DNA of 41,172 nucleotides from a candidate division WWE3 bacterium CG23_combo_of_CG06-09_8_20_14_all_40_14 (GCA_002770755.1 PCQY01000031.1:1-41172); one strand, 5' to 3'; positions 3,153 through 41,172 are shown, counted from the stretch's first letter. Numbers and translations: made by a program. Notes: generated from the letters alone by a model not told the origin.

Positions 3153-4682
3153 ATGCCCATAGCAAAAATTACTTCCGGCACTGTGGTTGGGTTGGACCCT
3201 TTTCCTATTGAAATTGAAGTGTCCATTGATTACCAGGGATTCCCGGGGTTTAGTATTGTGGGTCTTGCCTCAAAGGAGGTGGATGAAGCAAAAGAACGCG
3301 TTCGCAGCGCTATTAAAAACTGCGGCTTTAAATTTCCCGATAAAAGAATTACGGTAAACCTTGCTCCCGCAGATCTGCCCAAAAAGGGCTCCGCTTTTGA
3401 TTTTCCCATTGCGGTAGGAATACTTTTGGCAGATGAGCAGCTATTTTTTAATCCCGAAAAAAATGTTTTTATTGGAGAACTTTCGCTTGACGGAGGTTTG
3501 CGGCACACCTCTTCCGTTTTGCCTGTTGCCCTTATGACTAAAGAAAAAGGTTTTGGCAATATTTTTTTGCCAAGCTTAAATTCCAGGGAAGCAAGTATTG
3601 TATCAAATATTTTTGTAAGACCCATAAACACCTTAAAGGATATTTACTATCATTTTGCAGGTAATAAAATTGTTTATCCTTCCAAAACCATAGATTTAGC
3701 GGAGCTTTTAACGGAGGATACAGACTGCGAATTTGATTTTTCCGAAGTGCGGGGGCAGCAGTATGTTAAAAGGGCTTTGCAGGTTGCGTGCGCGGGGAGC
3801 CATAATATTGCAATGAAAGGTCCGCCCGGCGCGGGAAAAACCATGTTGGCAAGATGCCTCCCTTCTATTCTTCCGACCCTCACACCTACTGAGGCACTGG
3901 AAGTTACCAAAATATATTCCATCTCCGGAAACTTAAATCCTAATTTACCTATTATAAAAACAAGACCCTTTAGAAGTCCGCATCACACCACTTCTCGCGC
4001 GGGGCTGGTTGGGGGTTCTTCAAATCTTATGCCTGGCGAGATATCGCTTGCCCATAGAGGCGTTCTTTTTTTGGACGAATTTGCCGAATTGCCGCGCCAT
4101 GTTCTGGAAGCTTTGCGTCAGCCCATTGAGGATGGTTTTATTACCATAAGCCGCGCTGCGGGTTCCATAAAATTTCCCAGCAAAGTTATGCTGGTGGTTG
4201 CTTATAACCCCTGCCCCTGCGGATTTTTGGGGGATAGTAAAAAAGCTTGCACCTGCTCCCAAAACCAAATAAATAATTATCAAAAAAGAATATCGGGACC
4301 CATTTTGGATAGAATTGATATTCATATAGAAGTTCCCGCCGTTGAAACAGATAGATTAGTAGAGGATAAAGAGGTTTATGGAAAAACTTCTAAACAAATG
4401 AGAACAGAGGTCCAAAAAGCAAGAAACCGGCAGCTTAAAAGATTTGAGAATGTCTCTATCACAGCAAATTCTGAGATGAAGCCAAAGGAAGTTAAAGAGT
4501 TTTGCAAACTAACGGGGGAGTGTTTGGATATTTTAAGGCACGCAGTAATCCAAATGGGATTATCGGCAAGAGCGTATTTTAGAGTTATAAAAGTGGCAAG
4601 AACAATTGCCGATTTAGAAAATTCACCGGAAATAACCCGCAGTCATTTAGCCGAAGCGCTTACCTACAGACCCCGGCAATAA
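3153..4682 (+). CDS. comM: Mg-chelatase-like AAA+ ATPase ComM/YifB
   Basis: 509 aa. Lon-protease-like N-domain, Walker A GPPGAGKT, Walker B LFLDEF, C4 cluster CPCG...CTC, and C-terminal ChlI-like domain ending LAEALTYR. Confidence 0.9.
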   Translation: MPIAKITSGTVVGLDPFPIEIEVSIDYQGFPGFSIVGLASKEVDEAKERVRSAIKNCGFKFPDKRITVNLAPADLPKKGSAFDFPIAVGILLADEQLFFNPEKNVFIGELSLDGGLRHTSSVLPVALMTKEKGFGNIFLPSLNSREASIVSNIFVRPINTLKDIYYHFAGNKIVYPSKTIDLAELLTEDTDCEFDFSEVRGQQYVKRALQVACAGSHNIAMKGPPGAGKTMLARCLPSILPTLTPTEALEVTKIYSISGNLNPNLPIIKTRPFRSPHHTTSRAGLVGGSSNLMPGEISLAHRGVLFLDEFAELPRHVLEALRQPIEDGFITISRAAGSIKFPSKVMLVVAYNPCPCGFLGDSKKACTCSQNQINNYQKRISGPILDRIDIHIEVPAVETDRLVEDKEVYGKTSKQMRTEVQKARNRQLKRFENVSITANSEMKPKEVKEFCKLTGECLDILRHAVIQMGLSARAYFRVIKVARTIADLENSPEITRSHLAEALTYRPRQ

Positions 4683-9685: not shown

Positions 9686-11341
9686 TTACTTGCATTTTCT
9701 AATATCTTTAATTTTCAAATCCAAACCCCTTCTCCCGTTCCAGAGGTTTTCGCTTAAAGTGTACACAATATCCACCCTATTCTTTGGGCTAATTTCAAAA
9801 TTGCCAAAGCCAAAGGCAACAGCGTTTTTTAAGTCCCCTTCCCCATCTTTTAAGGAAATTCGCAAATGATCGCTGTTTTTTCCTATTTTTTTAACCTGCC
9901 AAACTTCCGCGCCTTTTGTTAAAAATACAGGCTCTGGGTTGCCTAGCCCAAACGGCGACAAACTTTCCACAAAGTCCAAAAGTTTGTAATTTGCCTCCGT
10001 TAAAGATATCTCGCCGTCTATCTCAAGTTCTGGGGTAATGTCTTTCTTTTTTATGAATTTCTCGGAGGAGTTGTACACCTCATCTATAAAAACTTCAAGA
10101 TACTCGTTCTTAATGCTAAAACCCGCCGCCATAGGATGTCCGCCCAGCGATTCAAAATGTTTTTCAAAGTTTCTTAAAAATTTTATAATATTTACTTTGC
10201 CAACCGAGCGGGCGGAGCCTTTGCTAACATTTTCCTTTTGACTGATAACAATTGAAGGAACATAAAATTCCGAGACGAGTTTTCCAGCCACCAGCCCAAT
10301 AACCCCTTCGTGAAAGGAGGCGCTTTTTGCAATTACAATGTTGCGCCTATCGCTGTAAAAATTCTTTGACTCTTCAAACATAGAAAAAGTTAATTTTTGC
10401 CGCTCTGAATTTAAGTTGTTAAGGCTTTCGGCAATAGGCAGGGCGGTTTCCAGTTTTTTGGCGCATAAAAGCCTTAAAGAATTTAAGGCGTTTTCAAGCC
10501 TGCCTGCGGAATTAAGGCGGGGGGCAATTATCCACCCAACTTCATACACATCTATTTTTTTATCGGTTATTCCGGAAACTTGGGTTAGAGCTTTAATGCC
10601 CGCTCTTTTTAATTTGTTTAATTCTTTAAGCCCGTATTTTACCAAAGAACGGTTATATCCGGTTAAAGGCTGTACATCGGCGATAGTTGCCAAACTTACT
10701 AAGTCCAGCCCGTTAGAAAAGGAATGCTCGGATTTATCCGCTAATTGCAGAGAGAGTATCCACGAGATGCCCGCTGCGCAGAGTCTATCCGTCCATAAAA
10801 TGCTATCGGCATTAGGCAGGGTTTTGCCTTTTTGGTGATGGTCGCAGATTATCACCTTAAATTTCCTTTCTTTGGCATATAAAACCTCTTTGTTGGATAC
10901 AATTCCACAGTCAACGGTTACAAGTAAAGGGGGTGGCGCATTGTCTGGCATAGTTTTAATAATGTTGTCCACACTTTCTTTGGATAAGCCATAGCCTTCG
11001 CTGAACCTGTTGGGGATATAGGGGAAACAGTTTTTATATTTTAAGCCGTAATATATTTTCTCCCACAAAATAGCGGTGGCGCAAAGCCCGTCCGCATCGT
11101 AATCGCCGTGAATGTAAATAGGGGAGCTTCCTTTTATGGCGGAAAGAATTAATTTTTTAGCTTTTGCTGTTTCGGCTTTTAGGATTTTCTCTTCCTTAAA
11201 CATCCTGTTTAAGGTTTCTTCAGGAGAAGGGGGGTTTATAAATTCTTTAAGATTTGAAATGTTGCGGTTTAGGGCAAGTTGTTCAGAAATACCCCTGCCT
11301 TTTTTAGGCAGAACTTTCCAAATTTTCTCTCTATTTTGCAT
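9686..11341 (-). CDS. recJ: Single-stranded-DNA-specific exonuclease RecJ
   Basis: 551 aa. DHH motifs (IHGDYDADG, VDCG, DHH) and DHHA1 motif (GGHPMAAG). Confidence 0.9.
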   Translation of the reverse strand: MQNREKIWKVLPKKGRGISEQLALNRNISNLKEFINPPSPEETLNRMFKEEKILKAETAKAKKLILSAIKGSSPIYIHGDYDADGLCATAILWEKIYYGLKYKNCFPYIPNRFSEGYGLSKESVDNIIKTMPDNAPPPLLVTVDCGIVSNKEVLYAKERKFKVIICDHHQKGKTLPNADSILWTDRLCAAGISWILSLQLADKSEHSFSNGLDLVSLATIADVQPLTGYNRSLVKYGLKELNKLKRAGIKALTQVSGITDKKIDVYEVGWIIAPRLNSAGRLENALNSLRLLCAKKLETALPIAESLNNLNSERQKLTFSMFEESKNFYSDRRNIVIAKSASFHEGVIGLVAGKLVSEFYVPSIVISQKENVSKGSARSVGKVNIIKFLRNFEKHFESLGGHPMAAGFSIKNEYLEVFIDEVYNSSEKFIKKKDITPELEIDGEISLTEANYKLLDFVESLSPFGLGNPEPVFLTKGAEVWQVKKIGKNSDHLRISLKDGEGDLKNAVAFGFGNFEISPKNRVDIVYTLSENLWNGRRGLDLKIKDIRKCK

Positions 11342-13557: not shown

Positions 13558-14536
13558 AAGTTTCATATTAATTTCAACAAAAACTATTTTTGTAGTAGCG
13601 GCGGTAGCCCTGATGCTATGGTTGCTGGTGCAAATTAAAGAGATAGCGCTTTTGATATTTGTGTCTTTAATGCTTTCTCTTGCTCTCTCGCCTTTTGTGG
13701 AGTTTCTGGAAAAGAGAAAGATTCCAAGAGGGCTTGCGGTTCTTATTATTTACATTATTATAGTTTCAATTGTAGCTTTAATTGGTGCGGTGGCATTGCC
13801 CCCGATTATAAGCCAGACCACGCGTTTTATAAAGTCGTTTCCTCAAATAATTTCTTCGCTTGGAAGCACGCCCATTCTTAACAAGGTAACTACGGATTTG
13901 AACAATTTCTTGGCGGAACAGCTTATGGGGGCTTCCGGGAATGTAATAAGGGTTACGGTTGGGGCGTTTTCCGGAATTTTGGCGGTGTTTTCGCTTATGG
14001 TCTTCACGGCGTATCTCCTTCTAGACTTGGATAATCTAAGGGAAGCGTTTTTATTTTTTCTTCCCGCTAAACCCCGTAAAGAAATAGCGGAAGTTTTAAA
14101 AGAGATAGAGTACAAATTGGGCGGGTGGCTTAGGGGGCAGTTTATTTTAATGTGCATTGTTGGCGGAGCAACTTATGTGGGTCTTTTGCTTTTAGGGATT
14201 AAGTATGCCGCCCCCCTTGCTTTGATTGCAGGGCTTTTGGAGGTGGCGCCTATGCTGGGGCCGATTATCTCCGCGGTGCCAGGGATAATTGTGGGGTTTT
14301 CCATATCCCCCGTTACCGGCTTGGGGGTTTTGGCATTGTATTTAGCTATACAGCAGCTTGAAAATAATATCATTGTTCCTAAAGTGATGCAGAAAACAGT
14401 TGGATTTAGCCCTTTGATAACGCTTTTGGCGCTTTTAATAGGCGGGAAGCTTTTTGGAGTAGTGGGGGCGCTTTTATCGGTTCCTCTAACACTAATAATA
14501 GTAATAATAACAAAACATGTTTTGGAGTACGAATAA
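13535..14536 (+). CDS. AI-2E family (PerM/YhhT-like) transporter
   Basis: 333 aa and polytopic. Shows the family pattern LLEVAPMLGPIISAVPGI...QQLENNIIVPKVM. Confidence 0.85.
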   Translation: MAVRKSSESFILISTKTIFVVAAVALMLWLLVQIKEIALLIFVSLMLSLALSPFVEFLEKRKIPRGLAVLIIYIIIVSIVALIGAVALPPIISQTTRFIKSFPQIISSLGSTPILNKVTTDLNNFLAEQLMGASGNVIRVTVGAFSGILAVFSLMVFTAYLLLDLDNLREAFLFFLPAKPRKEIAEVLKEIEYKLGGWLRGQFILMCIVGGATYVGLLLLGIKYAAPLALIAGLLEVAPMLGPIISAVPGIIVGFSISPVTGLGVLALYLAIQQLENNIIVPKVMQKTVGFSPLITLLALLIGGKLFGVVGALLSVPLTLIIVIITKHVLEYE

Positions 14537-14978
14537 AAATTTTTTAGCCTCTTTTGCGGTAGCTTTCGCCCTTTTGTTTTTTTTACCTTCCATATCTTAT
14601 GCCTTCTTTACGAAAGATATTTTTGTAAATGGAAATATGGTCTCCGCCGGTTATTGGTATAGTTACGATTTTTCTACGCCCTTAAAAGCTTCTTATTCTG
14701 TGGGAGAGTTGTGGAGCGCCAAAAATTTTGGGGTGCTTTATGATAATTTAGCGCAGGACCTTTCTGGCATCTATACTAAGGATGAGTTTATAGAATCGTT
14801 AAAAGACGCCGCTATTGCGGGCTTTGAGGTTGTTGGCGATGCTGTTTATCTAAATAGCAAGCAGGCATATACGATTATTAACATAAGATACTTGGATAAC
14901 TCTTCTAAGAATTATAAAACAGTTTTTAATTATGAGAGGGGCGGTTGGAGGCTTCTGGGAACGAAGGAGATTGAATAA
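14517..14978 (+). CDS. Secreted hypothetical protein with SipW/TasA-type N-terminal region
   Basis: 153 aa. Hydrophobic signal followed by SYAFFTKDIFVNGNMVSAGYW, which resembles the AyFsD...N...aG signature of SipW-processed proteins. Confidence 0.55.
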   Translation: MFWSTNKNFLASFAVAFALLFFLPSISYAFFTKDIFVNGNMVSAGYWYSYDFSTPLKASYSVGELWSAKNFGVLYDNLAQDLSGIYTKDEFIESLKDAAIAGFEVVGDAVYLNSKQAYTIINIRYLDNSSKNYKTVFNYERGGWRLLGTKEIE

Positions 14979-14994
14979 AAAGGAGGTGATTTAA

Positions 14995-15537
14995 GTGTCG
15001 CAAATTAAATATTTTGGATTGGGGCTTTTTTTGGGAATAATTATTGTTGGAACGGTAACGGCGGTTAAAGCGTATCTGACAAAAGAGAAAGTTCTTGGGG
15101 AAAGCGCTGTAAGCACGGCAACCTTGGATATTTCCACAACCCCGCAAAGCGCTCTGCTTTCTTTTGAGGGGGTAACGCCTGGTTTTAGCTCGGGCGAGAA
15201 AATTGTAACTCTAAAAAACACCGGGACAGCGGATTTAAAGTATAGGGTGTCGGTGGAACCTACGAATGTTTCGGATAACAATGATTTATACAAAGCGCTG
15301 GAATATGTTTTGTATGAGTACGACGGCAATTCACAAAAGACAAAATCCTTAGGAGGAGAAGGTTTCCTGTTAAAAGATTTACAGGATGTAGAAATAGCTC
15401 AAACATTAGATTCCGGTCAGGAGAAAAATCTCGGTATTGAAATAAGTTTGCCGCAGGATGCAGGTAACGGAATACAGGGACTTACCACTAACTTTAAGAT
15501 AATATTTAACGCTATTCAAAAGGACGGCGTGTTTTAA
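14995..15537 (+). CDS. TasA/camelysin-like secreted protein
   Basis: 180 aa. GTG start 4 nt after AAAGGAGGTGAT (14978-14990). TM/signal followed by VKAYLTKEKVLGESAVSTATLDIS and a beta-rich body (TLKNTGTADLKYRVSV). Confidence 0.6.
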   Translation: MSQIKYFGLGLFLGIIIVGTVTAVKAYLTKEKVLGESAVSTATLDISTTPQSALLSFEGVTPGFSSGEKIVTLKNTGTADLKYRVSVEPTNVSDNNDLYKALEYVLYEYDGNSQKTKSLGGEGFLLKDLQDVEIAQTLDSGQEKNLGIEISLPQDAGNGIQGLTTNFKIIFNAIQKDGVF

Positions 15538-15887
15538 GAACAAAAAAAGCTCGTAAGCCAGATTCTGTTTTAGTGGCTAAAATTAATCTATGCCCCACTT
15601 TAACCCAATGCCAAGCGGGCTTTTTGCGGGTAGTTCGTGGGTTGCTACAGGTGGGATTGCCCGTTTCACTCCCGATTGAATATCGGGACTCGTCTCTGTT
15701 GCTCTCAAGCCTTGTTAATTCAAGACCTGCCCTTCGGGGGACCAGCGCTTGTTATAAATCCAAGGCGCTTTGCCTGGATTTATACCTCGCGTCGGAGCTT
15801 GCGCCCCGTCCCTTTGCTTTGCGTAGTCTGGACTTTCCTCTATATATCGCAAAGGATATACAGTATTAGCCCGGCTTCTTTTATTCT
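15537..15887 (-). ncRNA. rnpB: RNase P RNA (bacterial type A-like)
   Basis: The minus strand carries the conserved P4 strands GAGGAAAGTCCAGAC (rc of 15826-15840) and ACAGAATCTGGCTTA (rc of 15554-15568). P2 is AAGCCGG/CTGGCTT. P1 is AGAATAAAAG / CTTTTTTTGTTCT (rc of 15537-15549). The ends are estimated from P1 and the promoter. Confidence 0.88.
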
Positions 15888-15893
15888 GAAACC

Positions 15894-15902
15894 ATTATAC
15901 CA
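15894..15902 (-). promoter_or_regulatory. Extended -10 promoter of rnpB
   Basis: On the minus strand, TGgTATAAT (15902-15894) is followed by 6 nt, then the A at 15887 that begins helix P1. Confidence 0.55.
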
Positions 15903-15959
15903 CAAACCACACTATAAGACTCGCCTGTGCCTGTGTGCCGAACCTGCCCCCGCAAGTTG

Positions 15960-18969: not shown

Positions 18970-19036
18970 TCTTGGGTAATCTCACCCAGTTGGTATTGGC
19001 TTAAGAGCCAACATCAAGTAACTCTGAAGCAGAAAT

Positions 19037-20953
19037 TTATTGGATGCTTGAGATAACTGGCGGTACAGCCGTTTGAGGAGGATTTTTATCCGGCTCTTTT
19101 AGAGGTGAGCTGGATGTCTCTCTTGTCTGTGACGGTTTTAGGGATGCTTGTGGTTGCGAAGATTTTAATTCGCCCTCAAAAATTTTTTCCTCCTCTCTCA
19201 TCTGCGCAACTTCTTTCGGGTTTGTAGTTATAACTTTATGCTCCTCCTCCGATGCTATAATCTGCATTGCCACATGGTTATTCCCTGCAAAAAACAACCC
19301 TTCGCCAATACCCGCCGAAAGAAGAAGTCTCTTTTCTCCCTCGCTTAAATAAAAAACCTGCGCCAAACGGTCAATTGAAGCAGGATGCTGTTTCAATAAC
19401 ACCTGCATAGAAGAGTTTGTTACAATAGTTTTGCCGTACTCGCTTGACAAAAAGTCGTCCACATCGTGTGTTATCGTAGTTAAACCTAAATAATATTTCC
19501 TTGCCCGTTTAGCTATGGAGTACAAAAAGTTTGCCGAGTCTTCATTTTGCATAAGGTACCACGCCTCATCCACCACCAAAATACGCTTCTTTAAGTTATA
19601 TTTAATCCTTGTCCAAATGAAATCCAAAATAATGTATATGGCCACCGGTCTTAAAACATCTTCAAGCTCCCGCACCGAAAAAGCGGTGAAAGAATTTTCA
19701 ATGCTTACTGTGGAGCGCTGGTCAAAAATGCCCATCAAGGAGCCTTTAATATATCTTTCTAACCGTTCGGATAGATTTTTTGCTTCCGGCTCTTCCATAC
19801 CCAAAAGCACTTTATACAAATCTTCTAGAATAGGAGGCTCTCTCTTGTGCGTTTGAGGGTCCTGCGTAATACCCTTTATTTTGTAAGTCATCATCAGGGC
19901 TCTATCCAAAATTGCCTCTTCCGTATCACTAATACTGCCAAGCATTATTTTAAAGAGGGTGTGCAAGGTGAGTATTTTTAGGCCGAGCTGATTTTCCTTG
20001 TCCTCTCCGGAATACGGAGGCAGGTCAAAGGGGTTAATCTTTGCCTCGCTCCCTACGGAAAAGCTTATATAATCTCCGCCCAAAATTTTGGAAAGTCTTT
20101 CATATTCAGATTCAGGGTCTATTACAATTATATCCGTCCCAAATAAAATGGAACGCATGGCCTCTAACTTAACAAAATAACTCTTGCCGGCGCCGCTTTT
20201 GGCAAAAATAACCGAATTGGCGTTTTCTAAAGTAAATCTGTCAAATATAACTAGTGAACCATTATGCTTATTCACGCCATATAAAATACCCTCATTGGCG
20301 GTAAGTTCACTTGAAGTAAAAGGAAAAGTGGTGGCGACGCTGGTGGTGTCCATATTTCTGGTTATCAGGAGCTTATCAATACAAGAGGGGATAGTTGATT
20401 GAAAAGCGTCTTCCATTTGTAAAGTACATAATTTAGAGATAAGCATTAAAGAGCCTAATGTTGCTTCCACCTTTTTGGTTGTGCTGTTTAATTCCTCCAA
20501 AGAATCTGCCGGAACGGTTATGTAAAAAGAAAATTGGAAAAATCTTTCAATGCCTTTAACCAATTGTTCCTGCAAAGATTTGGCATCTTCTAAAGCCGCT
20601 TTAACGCCGGGATCCACAACCCTCCCTCTTTCGAAATCGGCATTTAGAGTCGCCTCCATCTCCGCAACTTTTCTTCTAAGGTCATCCAATACTCCCCTTG
20701 CTTCCACAGGGTAGTAAAACATAGACACCTCTAATGAATGGTCGTAGTTTATTATGGGGGCGAGCCAATTAGCGCCCACAAAACGGGGGTACCCCGAAAC
20801 AAACAGTGTTCTAAAATACTTTTCACCAATCTTAACGAAATTAAAATCCACCTCAATAGCGCTTGGGGCTATAATATCCTTTACATTAAGCATGCCCGCG
20901 GATAGGCGGTTATAGGCGTTAGAGGTAGTATTCTCTTTGCTTTTTTTGTTCAT
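19037..20953 (-). CDS. VirB4/TraC-family (DUF87-type) secretion ATPase, lacking the usual N-terminal segment
   Basis: 638 aa. KDIIAPSAIEVDF...GEKYFRTLFVSGYPRFV middle-domain pattern. Walker A KSGAGKSY. Walker B ILVVDEAW. S/P-rich C-terminal tail. Confidence 0.85.
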   Translation of the reverse strand: MNKKSKENTTSNAYNRLSAGMLNVKDIIAPSAIEVDFNFVKIGEKYFRTLFVSGYPRFVGANWLAPIINYDHSLEVSMFYYPVEARGVLDDLRRKVAEMEATLNADFERGRVVDPGVKAALEDAKSLQEQLVKGIERFFQFSFYITVPADSLEELNSTTKKVEATLGSLMLISKLCTLQMEDAFQSTIPSCIDKLLITRNMDTTSVATTFPFTSSELTANEGILYGVNKHNGSLVIFDRFTLENANSVIFAKSGAGKSYFVKLEAMRSILFGTDIIVIDPESEYERLSKILGGDYISFSVGSEAKINPFDLPPYSGEDKENQLGLKILTLHTLFKIMLGSISDTEEAILDRALMMTYKIKGITQDPQTHKREPPILEDLYKVLLGMEEPEAKNLSERLERYIKGSLMGIFDQRSTVSIENSFTAFSVRELEDVLRPVAIYIILDFIWTRIKYNLKKRILVVDEAWYLMQNEDSANFLYSIAKRARKYYLGLTTITHDVDDFLSSEYGKTIVTNSSMQVLLKQHPASIDRLAQVFYLSEGEKRLLLSAGIGEGLFFAGNNHVAMQIIASEEEHKVITTNPKEVAQMREEEKIFEGELKSSQPQASLKPSQTRETSSSPLKEPDKNPPQTAVPPVISSIQ

Positions 20954-21642
20954 TCCAGTTTTGGTTCAACTAAAGCTGTAGTGTAATCGGAAACAGTTTG
21001 TCTAATCTTCTGAAAACGGGCGCTCCCCGGATTGTATGTGTCATAAAAGAGATCCACCAAATCTTCTGTAAGCATCTGTTTTGCTTTGATATTCATTCTA
21101 GTAAACTCTTTGATAAGGTGGTCCCTCTTTGGTTCAAGCTGTACCTTTGCCGCTTTTAAGATTCCGTTTACATCCACATGAGTTTTTTTCTTGGTATCTA
21201 TTCCAATAAGCCCGTAAATCCAGGAGAATGGGGAACTTCCGGGGGTTGCAGTTTTAATATTATAGGGAATCGCCACATAAAAATTTTTGTCCAGCGCTTC
21301 GTTTTTGGTAACTAATTCTTCTACAAATTTTATGTATTTTTTGGTTTGCTCTTTTAATTTTTCATCCTGCTGAGCTTTTTCTGCTTTTCTTGTGTTTTCA
21401 ATGTATTTTGAGATATCCATTTTCTTGCTTCTTACCACAATTTGCATCGGAAAAGATAGAGAGTTTAGCATAGAGCTAAACGCCGCTATAGCGGCATCCT
21501 GTTCTCTGACGGATAAAAGGTCAAAATTAACCGAGGTTGTCTGCAAAACCATAGCCGCCCCGCCGTTTTTCAGAATGAGCAAGTTGTCTTTTATATCTTC
21601 TATATCTAAGTGGTCTTGTGTTGTGGCAAGTATTTTTGTCAT
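20950..21642 (-). CDS. Hypothetical protein resembling the detached N-terminal domain of Gram-positive VirB4 ATPases
   Basis: 230 aa. HLDIEDIKDNLLILKNGGAAMVLQTTSVNFDLLSVREQDAAIAAFSSMLNSLSFPMQIVV matches the remembered N-terminal pattern of Tn916 Orf16/PrgJ-type VirB4. ATGA overlaps at both ends. Confidence 0.5.
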   Translation of the reverse strand: MTKILATTQDHLDIEDIKDNLLILKNGGAAMVLQTTSVNFDLLSVREQDAAIAAFSSMLNSLSFPMQIVVRSKKMDISKYIENTRKAEKAQQDEKLKEQTKKYIKFVEELVTKNEALDKNFYVAIPYNIKTATPGSSPFSWIYGLIGIDTKKKTHVDVNGILKAAKVQLEPKRDHLIKEFTRMNIKAKQMLTEDLVDLFYDTYNPGSARFQKIRQTVSDYTTALVEPKLE

Positions 21643-23168
21643 TTGCGAACTGCCGAAAAGTCAAGCGCCTTTAACGGCTTACCTGTTAAAACTACATTAA
21701 TTATATCAAAATAATTCTCGCTGTTTAGCACTTCTATTTTATAAGTTCCGTTAGGCAGGGGTGTTGCGCTTATAAACTGTCCCAATTTATTGGTTTTTAG
21801 AGCTCTAATAGGTGAATCGTTATCATCTCTTATTATAAGGGTGGCATTTTCAAGTAAGAAACCCTCCTTATCTTTAACCATACCCCAAATAATATTGGGA
21901 TGGGCGTCTTCCTTATTCTCCTTCTGCGCCTTCTCTGAGGGGATTTCCTTGCGCTCCTTAACAACCGAACGGCTTAGGTTTCTAACTATCTCCTCGTTTT
22001 CGTTAGGGGGGTTTTCCTCCGTTTTTGAAGGCTCCTTTATTTGGATGGTTTCTTCTACCAAAACCTTTTTCTTCTCCAGCTCTTTTATTCTCTCGGCATA
22101 GGAAGAGAGCTGGGTCTTATAAGTTTCTTTGGTTTTGTCCAAACCTTGCATCTGCGCTTTCAAACTCTCCATTTCTGTGGATAGTTTTTTGTTTTCCTTT
22201 CTTAAAGTATTTACTATCTCCGTTAATTCTTTTTCTTTTGCCCGAGATTCTTCTTTATCGCCTAGTATAAGTTCGCTGGCGGGAAGAACAGCGCCCTCCG
22301 GAGAAAACTTTTCCTCGGCTTTTTTAAGAACTTTTCTAAGCTCCTGCGCCTTTCTTAAAAGCTCCTGCCTATGTTGATTATCCGACACAGGAGATGAGGG
22401 TTCCACATAAGTTATTGTTCTCAAAGGCCTTGTTCGCTTTGGTAGGATGATTTCCCCTTCCAGGGGTATGTGTTTTAATGTTCTTCCAACCGAAACATTG
22501 GTAACGGTTGAGATGTTTTTTAAATCTTCCTTTTTCCTAACCACGAGAATATCCTCCTTGAATTGCTCTTTTTTTGCCGGTTTCTCCTCTTTGGGGGGCT
22601 CCTCCAAGGAGACCGCAGTTTTGGCGGGAGCTGTTACAGTAGAAACGGAGCTTTTTAGAGTAGGAGGTACGGTCACATCAAAAGTAATCTTTTTTAGAAA
22701 ATCTTCCTCCCTTTTGTCCATAAAGGTTCCTGCTGGCGCGGGAAAACCCCCTAAATAATCCGTTATAGCTTTTCTGCTTTTGGCTGGAGCGAGCGCAACT
22801 ACCTCTTTTCTCAAAGAGTCGGCGTAATCCGCCAAAAAATACTCCCGTGACTCCAAGGCCTTTTGCCATACTCTCTGCGTGGGGGTGGAAATGCTTTTTA
22901 TAAAATTTTTAATCCACTGGTCTAATCCTCTGTCTCCAAGGGGCACAAAGGCAAGGGCTAAGCTTCCGAGCCCGCCGAAAACAATTAAAATGGCTTTCCA
23001 CAGAAAAGAGATTTTTGAAATTAATGCTAGATATACCGTTATCCCCCCAATTATTAAATACATAAACTGGCGGACAGTGAGGTCCCCTACAAGTTTAAAC
23101 TCAACACTCATAATGTTTTGGGGTACCGGGTGTTGACGATGCGCTGTTTGTTCCTCGTTCATTGGCAT
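21639..23168 (-). CDS. PrgI/VirB3-like membrane protein fused to an E/K-rich coiled coil and a carboxypeptidase-regulatory-like beta-sandwich
   Basis: 509 aa. N-terminus HPVPQNIMSVEFKLVGDLTVRQFMYL plus two TM helices, as in PrgI. About 250 aa of E/K-rich sequence follows. C-terminus GMVKDKEGFLLENATLIIRD...TNKLGQFISATPLPNGTYKIEV. Confidence 0.6.
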   Translation of the reverse strand: MPMNEEQTAHRQHPVPQNIMSVEFKLVGDLTVRQFMYLIIGGITVYLALISKISFLWKAILIVFGGLGSLALAFVPLGDRGLDQWIKNFIKSISTPTQRVWQKALESREYFLADYADSLRKEVVALAPAKSRKAITDYLGGFPAPAGTFMDKREEDFLKKITFDVTVPPTLKSSVSTVTAPAKTAVSLEEPPKEEKPAKKEQFKEDILVVRKKEDLKNISTVTNVSVGRTLKHIPLEGEIILPKRTRPLRTITYVEPSSPVSDNQHRQELLRKAQELRKVLKKAEEKFSPEGAVLPASELILGDKEESRAKEKELTEIVNTLRKENKKLSTEMESLKAQMQGLDKTKETYKTQLSSYAERIKELEKKKVLVEETIQIKEPSKTEENPPNENEEIVRNLSRSVVKERKEIPSEKAQKENKEDAHPNIIWGMVKDKEGFLLENATLIIRDDNDSPIRALKTNKLGQFISATPLPNGTYKIEVLNSENYFDIINVVLTGKPLKALDFSAVRK

Positions 23169-23181
23169 TATAACTATTTTA

Positions 23182-23568
23182 TCAGATGGCGCTGTGAGAT
23201 GGTAGGCGATTTCTCAACTCCGTTAGCAAATATACTACTACGATAAAAAGGCAGAAAACACTGGTATTTAATAGGCTATGTACAGAAAAAGTTTTCATCA
23301 CCTTAATGCCGATAAATAAAGCTATGAAAATAAAGATTCTTCTGAACATTCTTCTGAAAATTATATTTGGCATATTAAACTTTTTGTATTTTTTGTAGTT
23401 TGCCAAGAAAAGAGCTAGAGATGCGAAAAGAGATAAAAGTAAATGCAGACTGCCAAAAAACAATAAGATGGCAAGTGGCTTTTGAGGTGGTACAAAGAGC
23501 AGAATGTATAAAAAGAACAGGACATTTCCAAAAAAAAGTAAAAAGAGTGTGTACAAAAACTTTGGCAT
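23182..23568 (-). CDS. Small polytopic membrane protein (about 4 TM), first gene of the PrgI/VirB4 module
   Basis: 128 aa with four hydrophobic segments separated by basic loops. TAGAAT (23580-23575) lies 6 nt upstream of the ATG. Confidence 0.5.
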   Translation of the reverse strand: MPKFLYTLFLLFFGNVLFFLYILLFVPPQKPLAILLFFGSLHLLLSLFASLALFLANYKKYKKFNMPNIIFRRMFRRIFIFIALFIGIKVMKTFSVHSLLNTSVFCLFIVVVYLLTELRNRLPSHSAI

Positions 23569-23677
23569 ATCCTTATTCTACACCCTTTTAGGCAGGGTTA
23601 CATTTACATAGAAGTCCCGGATGTCAATGGTTTCAACTTTAGATTCCGGTGCTATCATAAAATGTTATACTTCACTT

Positions 23678-38987: not shown

Positions 38988-39173
38988 AATTATTTGAATA
39001 GTTGCGAGTACTTCAATTGCAGGTACACAAATTTCTGTACCGTTAGTAATTGTGTTTGCTTTAGCGGGTTATTTTTTCATGCGTCTAGTTGAAACAGTTT
39101 CGTATTGGGGGCTGAATGGGCGAGGCAACAATCGCCCAAAATCTGAATTCTGAAAATTGGCGGTGCCTTTTGG

Positions 39174-39552
39174 TTAAAATCCGAACTTTTGATGACAATC
39201 GTTGCTTTTGAAATTTGTATATCTTGCACGCAATCCATTGGTTAAAGCGTCATAATCAAGTTTGTATTTTTTTTCTAAAATTTCTTCTTCCTCTAATCTA
39301 ATTGTGGGGGCATTTGGACCGTCTGTTATTTGCATACCAATATCACCAACAGATTTTTTACCACTTTTGCCTACGACTACAGAAACCGGTTTTACATCGC
39401 CTATCAATTTCAATACAGGTTTTCCTTTTTCTTCCTTCTGTTTTGATTTGGTCAAGCAGTAATTTAAGTTCTGGATATTTTATTCTTTCGCTTTTTGCGA
39501 TGTACCGATAATAAATATCCGGCTCTTTCAGGTCATTATCATTTTTAAACAT
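39174..39552 (-). pseudogene. Possible frameshifted small gene (two overlapping ORFs in different frames), family unknown
   Basis: A 64-aa ORF (39358-39552, ATG) and a 93-aa ORF (39174-39455, TTG) overlap across an A-rich stretch (rc of 39417-39432, GAAGAAAAAGGAAAAC). One indel there would join them into a product of about 125 aa. Confidence 0.3.
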
Positions 39553-39709
39553 ACGACTGGCTTACATTATGCTTGGTGTGTATACAAAACACCTGTATTT
39601 TTTTGTAATTTTGCGAATTTATAAAATCCATATTAGCTGTGGATAACTTCGTCATTGATTTTCTACTTTCTTTCTATTATTATATTAGTATAAGAATGAA
39701 GTTAAATTT

Positions 39710-41172
39710 ATGATTACAAAAAAACAAAAAGCAATCTTGGACTTCGTGAAAACTTACTCAAAAAGAAGGGGGTATGCTCCGTCTCTCGCGGAAATACAAA
39801 AGAACTTTAAAATGGCTTCCGTTTCAACGGCACATTTTTATATTTCTAAATTAAAAAAGGCTGGATATTTAGAAAAAATAAAAAATAAAGCGCGGGCAAT
39901 TAGTATTCCCGAAAAAGAACCGTTAGTAAAAATCCCGCTCTTGGGCATTATTGCCGCTGGCCAACCAATAGAAGCTATTGAAAACAAAGAATCAATCGTC
40001 GTTCCTAAAAGTAAATTACCGCGAGCAACCGAAGTATATGCTCTGCGCGTACAGGGCGACAGTATGATTGATGAAAATATCAATGACGGAGATACTATTT
40101 TAATTAAAAAACAAAATATAGCCGAGAACGGAGAAAAAGTGGTCGCGCTTCTTAATGGAAACGAGGCAACGCTCAAAACTTTTTATAAAGAAAAAAATCA
40201 AATAAGATTACAACCGGCAAATAAAAATTATCAACCAATTATAGTAAAAAGAGGTCAAGATTTTTCTTTGCAAGGAGTTTTGTTTGATGTAATAAAAACT
40301 AGCGAAACAATTCAGCCACTCCAAACCTTTGTTTTGCCTTCTGTTAAATTTAAGACAGCCGTATGGAACAAAATCTGTCCTTATTTTCAAAGTAATAACA
40401 ACGACTTCGTCCTTTATCACGGAAATTGTCTTGATATACTGAATCAATTACCACCAAACTCAATTGATATGGTCTTTGCCGACCCGCCATACAATCTTTC
40501 CAATGGTGGATTTTCTCTTCATGCCGGGAAAAGAGTAAGCGTCAATAAGGGCAATTGGGATAAAAGCAAAGGATTTAAAGATGATTATGATTTTCACTAC
40601 AAGTGGCTTGAAGCATGCAGAAGAGTTTTAAAATCAAATGGCACTCTTTGGGTTAGCGGAACATATCATTCAATTTATCAATGTGGTTACGCTCTTCAAT
40701 CTCTCGGATACCATATTATGAATGATATTACATGGTTTAAGCCAAACGGCTCACCTAATTTGAGCTGTCGTTATTTCACAGCATCGCACGAAACTTTAAT
40801 TTGGGCGCGAAAAGACAAAAATGCAAAACATTTTTTCAACTACAACCTGATGAAAAATGGAGATTGGTCGGAAGATTTTATCAAGAAACCAAACCTGCAA
40901 ATGCGTTCGGTTTGGGCAATTTATCCACCTAAAAAGTCGGAAAAAGTTTTTGGAAAACATCCAACACAAAAACCAGTTGAACTATTAAAGAGAATTATTC
41001 TTGCCTCAACAAAACAAGGAGCCACTATTCTTGACCCGTTCTCTGGAAGTTCAACTACCGGAGTAGCATCAGAGATGATTGGCGGAAGAAAATTTATTGG
41101 AATTGATACGGAACGAGATTTTTTAGATGTTTCAATTAGAAGATTTAAAGAAATACAATCTTTATCTCCGAA
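39710..41172 (+). CDS. LexA (wHTH + S24 autopeptidase) fused in frame to a beta-class N6/N4 DNA methyltransferase; 3'-partial
   Basis: Hand-translated ORF of at least 487 codons with no stop through the window end. LexA-type wHTH at aa 1-70. Ala83-Gly84 cleavage motif (GIIAAGQPIEA). Ser118 in GDSM and Lys156 in ATLKTF. After a linker of about 45 aa: MTase motif IV DPPY (aa 258-261), HPTQKP, and motif I ILDPFSGSSTTG (aa 440-451). Confidence 0.8.
   Translation, partial: MITKKQKAILDFVKTYSKRRGYAPSLAEIQKNFKMASVSTAHFYISKLKKAGYLEKIKNKARAISIPEKEPLVKIPLLGIIAAGQPIEAIENKESIVVPKSKLPRATEVYALRVQGDSMIDENINDGDTILIKKQNIAENGEKVVALLNGNEATLKTFYKEKNQIRLQPANKNYQPIIVKRGQDFSLQGVLFDVIKTSETIQPLQTFVLPSVKFKTAVWNKICPYFQSNNNDFVLYHGNCLDILNQLPPNSIDMVFADPPYNLSNGGFSLHAGKRVSVNKGNWDKSKGFKDDYDFHYKWLEACRRVLKSNGTLWVSGTYHSIYQCGYALQSLGYHIMNDITWFKPNGSPNLSCRYFTASHETLIWARKDKNAKHFFNYNLMKNGDWSEDFIKKPNLQMRSVWAIYPPKKSEKVFGKHPTQKPVELLKRIILASTKQGATILDPFSGSSTTGVASEMIGGRKFIGIDTERDFLDVSIRRFKEIQSLSP

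Follow-up and report, generated by a model that had tools for sequence, protein, structure and literature searches.

What is a PrgI/VirB4-type membrane-ATPase module doing among core replication genes, with no conjugation or mobility partners around it? This question is raised by four genes at positions 19037–23568 of the 41-kb stretch of candidate division WWE3 DNA analyzed here (hereafter, the window). The analysis described below indicates that the unit is very probably the core (PrgI/VirB3, TrsD and VirB4) of a relaxase-free, chromosomal Patescibacteria type IV secretion system (T4SS).

Composition of the four-gene unit

The unit consists of four tightly packed minus-strand ORFs, in order of reading a 128-aa ORF (23568–23182), a 509-aa PrgI/VirB3-like ORF (23168–21639), a 230-aa TrsD-like ORF (21642–20950) and a 638-aa VirB4-type ATPase ORF (20953–19037). 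A 13-nt gap (23169–23181) separates the first gene from prgI; the remaining junctions are ATGA overlaps at 20950–20953 and 21639–21642, with junction sequences ...CTGGAATGAACAAA and ...CGCAAATGACAAAA. On one side, rpmH-rnpA-yidD-yidC-jag-dnaN lies directly beside virB4; on the other are genes for an AddA-type UvrD/PD-(D/E)XK helicase, dnaG and rpoD. The structural statements of the first-pass annotation (ORF sizes, packing, overlaps, gap, both flanks and the spacing of the TAGAAT box discussed below) were all reproduced. The helicase was considered as a core component and rejected, since WWE3 loci and L050 lack the linkage, which is confined to the closest relatives (loci L047 and L052). The convergent dnaN and virB4 genes are 67 nt apart, and a hairpin between them (18972–18989), picked up by a scan for terminator-like elements, is a weak candidate for a bidirectional terminator; terminator-like and promoter scans of the region gave match counts at or below shuffled expectation. 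Scanned with Rfam at gathering thresholds, the window matched only tRNA-Glu; it also carries ComM-like and RecJ genes.

The 638-aa ATPase comprises a middle domain, a C-terminal P-loop ATPase domain and a low-complexity Pro/Ser-rich tail, and is devoid of the usual VirB4 N-terminal domain. It scored 392 bits against NCBIfam model NF045971 (conju_CD1110; cut-off 325), covering model positions 172–734 of 752, and matched Pfam families P-loop_TraG (E 1.6e-27), AAA_10 and DUF87. The nearest solved structure is 4ag5, the C-terminal domain of Thermoanaerobacter VirB4 (E 4e-51). Regular-expression searches of the translation located intact Walker A (AKSGAGKS, residues 251–258; 20180–20203, minus strand) and Walker B (ILVVDEA(W), residues 458–464; 19562–19582, minus strand) motifs, in agreement with the initial assignment of this protein to VirB4. 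At least 8,000 homologues were found; among the best 120, with 64–100% identity, the named ones all come from Patescibacteria, WWE3, Parcubacteria or Nomurabacteria, while the best match in a plasmid collection is only 38% identical.

The 230-aa protein had been described as resembling a VirB4 N-domain, and this was right. It matched NF045975 (VirB4_plasma) at positions 104–233 with an E-value of 8.6e-10, below the family cut-off, and NF041427 (TrsD/TraD) with an E-value of 7.6e-6. Its score against the latter, 25.9 bits with a cut-off of 200, excludes it from the pGO1-type TrsD family by the NCBI rule, so that it is homologous-looking only; its orthologues carry PF26593 (TraC-like). In an hhalign comparison, residues 37–221 aligned with residues 56–220 of full-length Clostridium botulinum VirB4 (E 3.6e-4, probability 37%), and the alignment of the 638-aa ATPase to the same protein begins at about residue 213. 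Since the two proteins cover complementary, adjoining parts of one Firmicute VirB4, they constitute a split VirB4, with the N-terminal domain encoded by a separate gene. A separate trsD ORF is present in all 38 related loci (188–256 aa, mostly 221–240). A TrsD profile built from 28 sequences had zero matches among PDB sequences up to an E-value of 10, and an AF2 model of the single TrsD sequence was unusable (pLDDT 38).

The 509-aa protein, likewise annotated correctly as PrgI/VirB3-like, matched PF12666 with 36.1 bits (cut-off 27, E 9.6e-9) over residues 14–100 (22869–23129, minus strand). Two transmembrane helices were revealed by a hydropathy scan, and AF2 modeled this region as a transmembrane hairpin (helices 32–50 and 55–74) and a helix at 80–94, with pLDDT above 90. 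Nine residues of the domain (H13, P16, Q17, F24, G28, T31, Q34, F74 and W85) are invariant in 52 homologues. The long C-terminal extension was modeled as a disordered stretch (171–260), a coiled coil (305–378) and a beta-sandwich (residues 425–509; 21642–21896, minus strand; pLDDT above 90) of the transthyretin-like/CarboxypepD_reg/CnaB-like type. The latter matched PF13620 with an E-value of 2e-4, below the cut-off; Foldseek matched it to 5aq0_A (TMt 0.70, E 3e-5) and to the CnaB2 domain of 8bdw (TMt 0.63–0.68). Residues N425, G429, R455, A456, K458, G463 and F465 are invariant in this domain. Most of 385 PrgI homologues are annotated with both PF12666 and PF13620, and the transthyretin-like end is widespread in CPR. 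We found no mention of this domain, or of the extension of about 400 aa, in the papers on Patescibacteria T4SS consulted here. The identity of the core proteins, the splitting of VirB4 and the operon packing are established by these data.

The first gene codes for a small membrane protein in which a hydropathy scan recovered four hydrophobic segments, in line with the four transmembrane segments noticed earlier (near residues 8–26, 32–50, 78–96 and 98–116), with a basic loop at 57–77. The protein matches no Pfam or NCBIfam family, and its own family has 17 representatives in 1.84 billion proteins. Homologues lie directly upstream of prgI in three more relatives (L047, L050/L051 and L052/L053) with differing flanks. 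The gene is lineage-restricted and occupies the VirB6/PrgH position of Firmicute MPF-FATA operons; no mention of it was found in the papers on Patescibacteria T4SS consulted here. Comparison by hhalign with a CD1112 VirB6 and a Firmicute Mbov_0395 pilin-like protein showed no similarity (probability 0.1%), and the sequence supports identification as neither VirB6 nor pilin. Weak remote homologues (E ~1e-6), which may reflect hydrophobic composition alone, are not beside T4SS genes in a WWE3 genome, so that the link of this protein to the T4SS is lineage-specific. A −10-like box, TAGAAT (23575–23580, minus strand), is located 6 nt upstream of the ATG at 23568; L047 and L050 have TAAAAT and TAGAAT at the same distance, even with a different upstream gene. 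The box is a candidate promoter that would yield a leaderless or very short-leader transcript.

Conservation and absence of mobility genes

Across 38 loci from WWE3, Dojkabacteria and relatives, the prgI-trsD-virB4 order is syntenic, with intergenic gaps mostly between −32 and +21 nt. Of the 46 loci fetched, 30 have a dnaN match in opposite orientation after virB4, and 29 of these have jag and yidC as well. Mean identity to these loci is 65.8% for VirB4, 50.3% for TrsD, 38.5% for DnaN and 43.4% for YidC (VirB4 and DnaN were compared in the same genome pairs), i.e. the unit is conserved more strongly than the neighboring housekeeping genes. In GC content, GC3 and codon usage the unit falls inside the spread of the other window genes. 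It is vertically inherited, native in composition and, as the first pass had suggested for a reduced-genome, probably host-dependent lineage, chromosomally fixed; the Patescibacteria are such a lineage.

Pfam scans of the window's 34 main ORFs (nearly all at least 90 aa long), with NCBIfam searches of those left unassigned, detected no relaxase or T4CP, no VirB6, VirB8, VirB1 or pilin, and no integrase or transposase. The direct repeats around the unit are short, imperfect and attributable to chance; they lie within coding sequence, and none is att-like. An ICE or plasmid MPF-FATA transfer region was rejected, as relaxase, T4CP, integrase, att repeats and foreign composition are all lacking in the window; the earlier statements that partners and flanking repeats are absent and that this is no ordinary ICE or plasmid transfer region therefore hold. 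The description of the module as an orphan is valid for the 41-kb window and should be confined to it: the survey of Quinonero-Coronel et al. (2025; PMC12102498) reports that VirD4-like T4CPs, VirB6 and arrays of VirB2-like pilins are mostly encoded at other sites in Patescibacteria genomes. VirB6 and VirB2-like pilins, a wide but not universal feature of these systems, were not found within the window, and no VirB6, VirB8, VirB1 or VirB2-like pilin gene is recognizable beside the core in WWE3 relatives.

Relationship to known systems

The architecture had been called undescribed, which is incorrect: this kind of system was described in 2023–2025, and the unit is an ordinary member of it. The module is the subject of PMC12102498 and is discussed in PMC12857230 and PMC11665869. 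The 2025 survey found the system in 2,417 of 3,035 Patescibacteria genomes, its VirB4 proteins forming one monophyletic branch within MPF-FATA, with adjacent TrsD and PrgI, relaxases almost absent and a near-origin location (dnaA/dnaN/rnpA/rpmH); VirB6 is scarce in Microgenomatia and absent in Gracilibacteria. By Tn-seq, Wang et al. (2023; PMC10633639) showed that Ca. Southlakia epibionticum cannot grow epibiotically without its T4SS genes, comEC being dispensable (PMC10633639, PMC12857230). The distinguishing features of the clade are recognizable here: the ATPase appears to belong to the Patescibacteria VirB4 clade, a TrsD homologue is encoded beside virB4, and a PrgI/VirB3 homologue adjoins them. 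The location is chromosomal and origin-proximal, with rpmH-rnpA-yidD-yidC-jag-dnaN beside virB4 and no relaxase in 41 kb.

The unit shares with Patescibacteria-clade T4SSs (PMC12102498), including the S. epibionticum cluster SEML1_0006-0019 (PMC10633639), VirB4, a separate TrsD, an adjacent PrgI/VirB3 and a relaxase-free chromosomal position beside dnaN, rnpA and rpmH. It differs from the 14-gene Saccharibacteria cluster in that only the core is present, with no nearby VirB6, VirB2 pilin array or PG hydrolase, and from the accounts of the clade consulted here in the extra lineage-specific four-transmembrane gene upstream of prgI and in the PrgI extension of about 400 aa with its transthyretin-like end. 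The same order of a two-transmembrane VirB3-like protein, TrsD/TraD and VirB4 is found in TrsC-TrsD-TrsE of pGO1/pSK41 and TraC-TraD-TraE of pIP501; those, however, are plasmid tra operons with relaxase, T4CP, VirB1, VirB6 and VirB8, whereas the unit described here stands alone on a chromosome. The best match in the plasmid collection, on the Pontibacillus sp. ALD_SL1 megaplasmid (NZ_CP062975, 355093–358115), has the same order and split VirB4: a PrgI-like protein (116 aa), a TrsD-like protein (hhalign probability 99.9%, E 6e-31) and a VirB4 with 38% identity, with no relaxase or T4CP within 8 kb. Its short PrgI lacks the C-terminal domain, and the locus also has a Mbov_0395 pilin-like gene and genes for a 779-aa polytopic (VirB6-like) protein and a 1,050-aa PG endopeptidase. 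The MPF-FATA T4SSs of CTn2 and C. botulinum pCDC3875 type share a CD1110-family VirB4 with PrgI upstream, but their VirB4 is a single 797-aa protein (~32% identity to the ATPase here), and VirD4 (CD1115), VirB6 (CD1112), an SLT hydrolase and a MOBP relaxase are present.

A likeness to archaeal Ced/Ted systems had also been suggested. A VirB4/HerA-clade ATPase, small membrane proteins, the lack of a relaxase and possible import are common to both, but the ATPase here is partnered by PrgI and TrsD, which derive from bacterial MPF-FATA systems, and there is no CedA. The ATPase scored 45.5 bits against CedB (NF041017, cut-off 700), compared to 392 bits against CD1110, and matched CedD with an E-value of 0.002, far below cut-off; the four unit proteins matched no CedA-type family in NCBIfam up to an E-value of 1, provided that CedA models are in the library. 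The likeness stands as a functional analogy and fails as homology.

Patescibacteria T4SSs are among the most conserved envelope machines of these bacteria, are essential in the one species tested, and are a leading candidate for how ultrasmall epibionts exploit their hosts, a significance already recognized in the literature. What the window adds is modest: a clean case of a WWE3-like lineage in which PrgI-TrsD-VirB4 is fixed next to dnaN as a bare core and VirB4 evolves more slowly than DnaN or YidC; a conserved transthyretin-like domain that ends PrgI in many CPR lineages; a small four-transmembrane gene at the VirB6 position in one sub-lineage; and, in the Pontibacillus megaplasmid, the closest counterpart of a split-VirB4 core in the plasmid collection.

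Possible function of the unit

We propose that the unit is the inner-membrane energizing core of a Patescibacteria-type T4SS, a chromosomal descendant of monoderm (MPF-FATA) conjugation machinery. The four genes, overlapping at ATGA, would be co-transcribed and translationally coupled. If the unit assembles like the homologous R388 and pCF10 systems, the 638-aa VirB4 would be the ATPase motor, expected to form hexamers, the TrsD-like protein would supply its membrane-proximal N-terminal domain in trans, and the two-helix hairpin of the PrgI/VirB3-like protein would anchor the ATPase to the cytoplasmic membrane. The module is not conjugative, having neither a relaxase nor a coupling protein linked to it; its most likely task is to drive the building of a pilus or conduit, whose components would be encoded at other places in the genome, and to carry macromolecules between epibiont and host. 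Uptake of host-derived macromolecules (nucleic acids) seems slightly more probable to us than the export of effectors. In a cultivated relative, tubular structures proposed to be T4SS pili have been described along with acquisition of host RNA (bioRxiv 10.64898/2026.06.21.733656).

A relic of an integrated conjugative element or of a plasmid transfer region, decayed and no longer functional, might look similar, with just three or four T4SS genes in a window without channel, pilin, T4CP or relaxase, and a VirB4 from a family otherwise typical of Firmicute mobile elements. Such a remnant is extremely improbable given the intact catalytic motifs, the overlapping and unbroken ORFs, the 66% identity of VirB4 against 38.5% for DnaN in the same genome pairs, the synteny across WWE3 and Dojkabacteria, and the native composition without repeats or integrase. 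Functional conjugation, with DNA exported by a system whose relaxase, coupling protein and channel are encoded at other genomic sites, is also very unlikely. VirD4-like T4CPs are indeed common in Patescibacteria (5,713 in 2,918 genomes), usually far from virB4, and dispersed T4SS genes are known from Rickettsia, but relaxases occur in only 103 surveyed Patescibacteria genomes, rarely near virB4 (PMC12102498). Moreover, the T4CP homologue of S. epibionticum is non-essential, whereas its T4SS is essential, and the module here is inherited like a core gene beside dnaN.

Two functional readings carry more weight. A dedicated Ced/Ted-like or ComB-like machine for import of DNA (or RNA), which would be a functional subtype of the T4SS core, is a reading we entertain tentatively. 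In its favor are the lack of nucleotide synthesis in CPR bacteria, the dispensability of comEC in S. epibionticum and the precedent for import set by the Helicobacter pylori ComB T4SS (PMC11665869). The feeding on host RNA cited above points the same way; the ComM-like and RecJ genes of the window are weak circumstantial support. However, import has not been demonstrated experimentally for any Patescibacteria T4SS, Wang et al. (PMC10633639) favored protein export or an alternative role, and the CedB and CedD scores and lack of CedA-like genes leave no homology-level link to Ced. VirB4 drives pilus biogenesis in Gram-negative T4SSs, and the core could serve an effector-export or pilus/adhesion machine, in which VirB4 would only build a VirB2-type pilus or would secrete proteins into the host. 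This agrees with the essential VirB2-like pilin arrays of S. epibionticum and with the suggestion of protein export or an alternative role made in PMC10633639, but neither the window nor the surroundings of the core in WWE3 loci contain recognizable pilin or effector candidates, and we regard it as rather unlikely, if a serious contender.

Finally, in a speculative and quite improbable variant, reduction of the T4SS in this WWE3-related lineage would have left a four-gene inner-membrane machine that works on its own, in which the minimal four-transmembrane protein replaces VirB6, VirB4 works in two pieces and the VirB3 extension recruits substrates or partners, host nucleic acids being imported without a pilus, VirB8 or coupling protein. 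The coiled-coil and transthyretin-like extension of about 400 aa would, by VirB3 topology, then be cytoplasmic.

Organization of the unit and its products

ORF calling placed four genes on the minus strand between positions 19037 and 23568: a gene for a 128-aa four-TM (4-TM) protein (23568..23182), prgI (509 aa, 23168..21639), a trsD-like gene (230 aa, 21642..20950) and a gene for a 638-aa VirB4 ATPase (20953..19037). The sequence contains two ATGA stop/start overlaps and one 13-nt gap between these genes, and a TAGAAT box (23580-23575, minus strand) lies 6 nt 5′ of the first ATG. All these features are exactly as described in the first-pass annotation. Equivalent, equally spaced boxes (TAAAAT, TAGAAT) were found in two close relatives, one of which has a different upstream gene. 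The matching box at the same distance in both suggests a real promoter, which would give leaderless or very short-leader mRNA.

The VirB4 assignment was upheld. The 638-aa protein scored 392 bits against NF045971 (NCBIfam, VirB4-like conjugal transfer ATPase, CD1110 family; cut-off 325 bits), and its Walker A (AKSGAGKS, residues 251-258) and Walker B (ILVVDEAW, residues 458-465) motifs are intact. Further matches were to P-loop_TraG, AAA_10 and DUF87, and the nearest solved structure was 4ag5, the C-terminal domain of Thermoanaerobacter VirB4 (E 4e-51), with R388 TrwK next. The ATPase covers only positions 172-734 of the 752 in NF045971. The proposed resemblance of the 230-aa protein to a VirB4 N-domain was borne out by two matches that fall short of the family cut-offs, one to the VirB4 model NF045975 in its N-terminal portion (positions 104-233, E 9e-10) and one to the TrsD/TraD model (E 8e-6), and by annotation of its orthologues with PF26593 (TraC-like). 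When a single full-length Firmicute VirB4 (C. botulinum pCDC3875, 797 aa) was used as reference, TrsD aligned weakly with residues 56-220 (hhalign E 3.6e-4) and the alignment of the ATPase started at about residue 213. From this adjoining coverage of one protein by two ORFs we infer that TrsD and the 638-aa ATPase are complementary pieces of a split VirB4.

The 509-aa protein passed the Pfam PrgI threshold at residues 14-100, as expected from its initial assignment. An AF2 model based on 52 homologues revealed a confident TM hairpin (32-50, 55-74) and a following helix; next come a disordered stretch, a coiled coil at 305-378 and, at 425-509, a confident beta-sandwich resembling transthyretin-like/carboxypeptidase-D regulatory and CnaB domains (5aq0_A, TMt 0.70). 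Both PF12666 and PF13620 are present in most of 385 PrgI homologues from WWE3, Parcubacteria and Daviesbacteria (lengths ~300-785 aa), and both end domains contain invariant residues. Since there are two TM helices and both termini of VirB3 are cytoplasmic (PMC12857230), the extension would be cytoplasmic, which is unusual for a transthyretin-like/CnaB fold.

Four hydrophobic segments were recognised in the 128-aa protein, together with a basic loop at its centre; Pfam and NCBIfam scans returned no family match. Only 17 representatives were present among 1.84 billion proteins, and the gene is restricted to a small sub-lineage. Clear homologues were located directly 5′ of prgI in three other relatives with differing flanks, including an MNT/HepT pair in place of the helicase in one and a methyltransferase-containing insertion before dnaN in one. 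At locus L050 of one close relative (assembly GCA_043824915.1), an insertion of four genes, among them one for an N6/N4 DNA methyltransferase, separates virB4 from dnaN (L050:5529-8005), and an MNT/HepT toxin-antitoxin pair stands instead of the upstream helicase (L050:60-714); the four-gene unit is nevertheless intact. The 4-TM gene is not at this position in WWE3 genomes. It fills the slot occupied by VirB6/PrgH in pCF10- and CTn2-type operons. Its product has no sequence similarity to the VirB6 or the pilin with which it was compared.

Surroundings and conservation in relatives

Elsewhere in the window the genes are of housekeeping type: VanW, NYN, ComM-like Mg-chelatase, SecD/SecF, RecJ, MiaB, MiaA, an AI-2E transporter, rpmH-rnpA-yidD-yidC-jag-dnaN, an AddA-type helicase-nuclease, dnaG, rpoD, glycosidases, oligopeptidase F, PCMT, a P-type ATPase and GDH. 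Gene scans across the 41 kb gave no relaxase, coupling protein, VirB6/B8/B1, pilin, integrase or transposase, and a repeat search gave no credible repeats flanking the unit, in agreement with the first reading. In GC, GC3 and codon usage the unit stays within the range of the other genes in the window.

At least 8,000 homologues of the ATPase were found. The best 120 are 64-100% identical and, where named, belong to Patescibacteria, WWE3, Parcubacteria and Nomurabacteria. A one-genome-per-species scan yielded 46 loci titled WWE3, Dojkabacteria/WS6, Gottesmanbacteria, Patescibacteria and uncultured Saccharibacteria, two of the titles being plainly mis-binned. The order prgI-trsD-virB4 is kept in essentially all loci of sufficient length, with gaps mostly of −32 to +21 nt (38 loci), and TrsD is a separate ORF in 38 of 38 loci (188-256 aa, mostly 221-240). 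Conservation of the core next to dnaN was also checked: 30 of the 46 loci, among them the complete genome CP006914, have an opposite-strand dnaN match after virB4, and 29 of these 30 also contain jag and yidC, mostly with rnpA. In the same genome pairs, identity was 65.8% for VirB4, 50.3% for TrsD, 38.5% for DnaN, 43.4% for YidC and 37.4% for Jag. Such a pattern marks a core function that is passed on vertically and is under strong constraint; it is not the pattern of a mobile element or a remnant.

At a Ca. Gottesmanbacteria locus (JAUXTO010000022, L045:7583-11104) the VirB4 homologue is one 1,234-aa ORF, in which query residues 22-255 and 229-591 match 1.7 kb apart. This spacing places an insertion, in frame and probably an intein, at the Walker A/P-loop.

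Known counterparts and proposed role

The PrgI-TrsD-VirB4 system is already known. VirB4 is present in 2,417 of 3,035 Patescibacteria genomes as a monophyletic clade nested in MPF-FATA, the monoderm conjugation class; TrsD is the most abundant associated component, PrgI/VirB3 is adjacent, and dnaN, dnaA, rnpA and rpmH are enriched nearby (Quinonero-Coronel et al. 2025, PMC12102498). VirB6 and VirB2-like pilin arrays occur in many of these genomes; there are almost no relaxases, and most T4CPs lie far from virB4 (PMC12102498). In the plasmid collection, the closest counterpart of the Patescibacteria core is a Firmicute T4SS-like locus located among flagellar and chemotaxis genes on an 897-kb replicon of Pontibacillus sp. 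ALD_SL1 (NZ_CP062975, L048:3483-13036). It has the same gene order and the same split; its TrsD is matched with an hhalign probability of 99.9% and its VirB4 is 38% identical to that in the window. It additionally encodes a pilin-like protein, a 779-aa VirB6-like polytopic protein and a 1,050-aa PG endopeptidase, with no relaxase or T4CP within 8 kb.

By homology with R388 and pCF10 (PMC12857230), PrgI would use the VirB4 N-domain, here TrsD, to tether VirB4 to the membrane in a 1:1 ratio, and the ATPase hexamer would power assembly and transport. Conjugation is unlikely because no relaxase or T4CP is linked. We take the unit to be the motor core of a host-interaction T4SS. Tn-seq showed that epibiotic growth requires the Saccharibacteria T4SS cluster (Wang et al. 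2023, PMC10633639). Two reviews give proposals for its role: it may import DNA or other macromolecules, or deliver effectors (PMC12857230, PMC11665869). A 2026 preprint on a cultivated relative describes feeding on host RNA as well as tubular structures that its authors suggest are T4SS pili (bioRxiv 10.64898/2026.06.21.733656). Among the possible roles, uptake of host macromolecules seems a little likelier than effector export or a function limited to a pilus. The first-pass annotation had proposed an exchange machine of undescribed architecture. Its observations stand, as does the picture of a chromosomally fixed, non-conjugative system in a host-dependent lineage, but the architecture had been described (PMC12102498), so the interpretation is only partly supported. 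What is left as new is the C-terminal domain of PrgI, of which the survey PMC12102498 makes no mention, together with the 4-TM gene specific to this lineage and a core that appears bare in WWE3-like genomes.

Other features of the window

A gap of ~400 nt 5′ of rpmH (15538-15934) contains no convincing ORF or Rfam match; in the closest relative (L047) it is the site of two small genes, of 114 aa and 113 aa (DUF5674). The last 2.2 kb (39000-41172) have lower GC (~0.35), no ORF >112 aa, no Rfam family and no notable repeats, and may consist of decayed genes or form an unrecognised element. Two adjacent small proteins of 153 and 180 aa (14517-15537), both conserved in L047, have no family match apart from a weak choice-of-anchor D-like match of the latter; each has a hydrophobic N-terminus, suggesting that they are secreted or membrane-anchored. 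The ComM-like Mg-chelatase/MCM-type ATPase and RecJ genes (3153-4682, 9686-11341) are at most 16 kb from the T4SS core; in the ABY1 class, competence and recombination genes are found near T4SS genes (PMC12102498).
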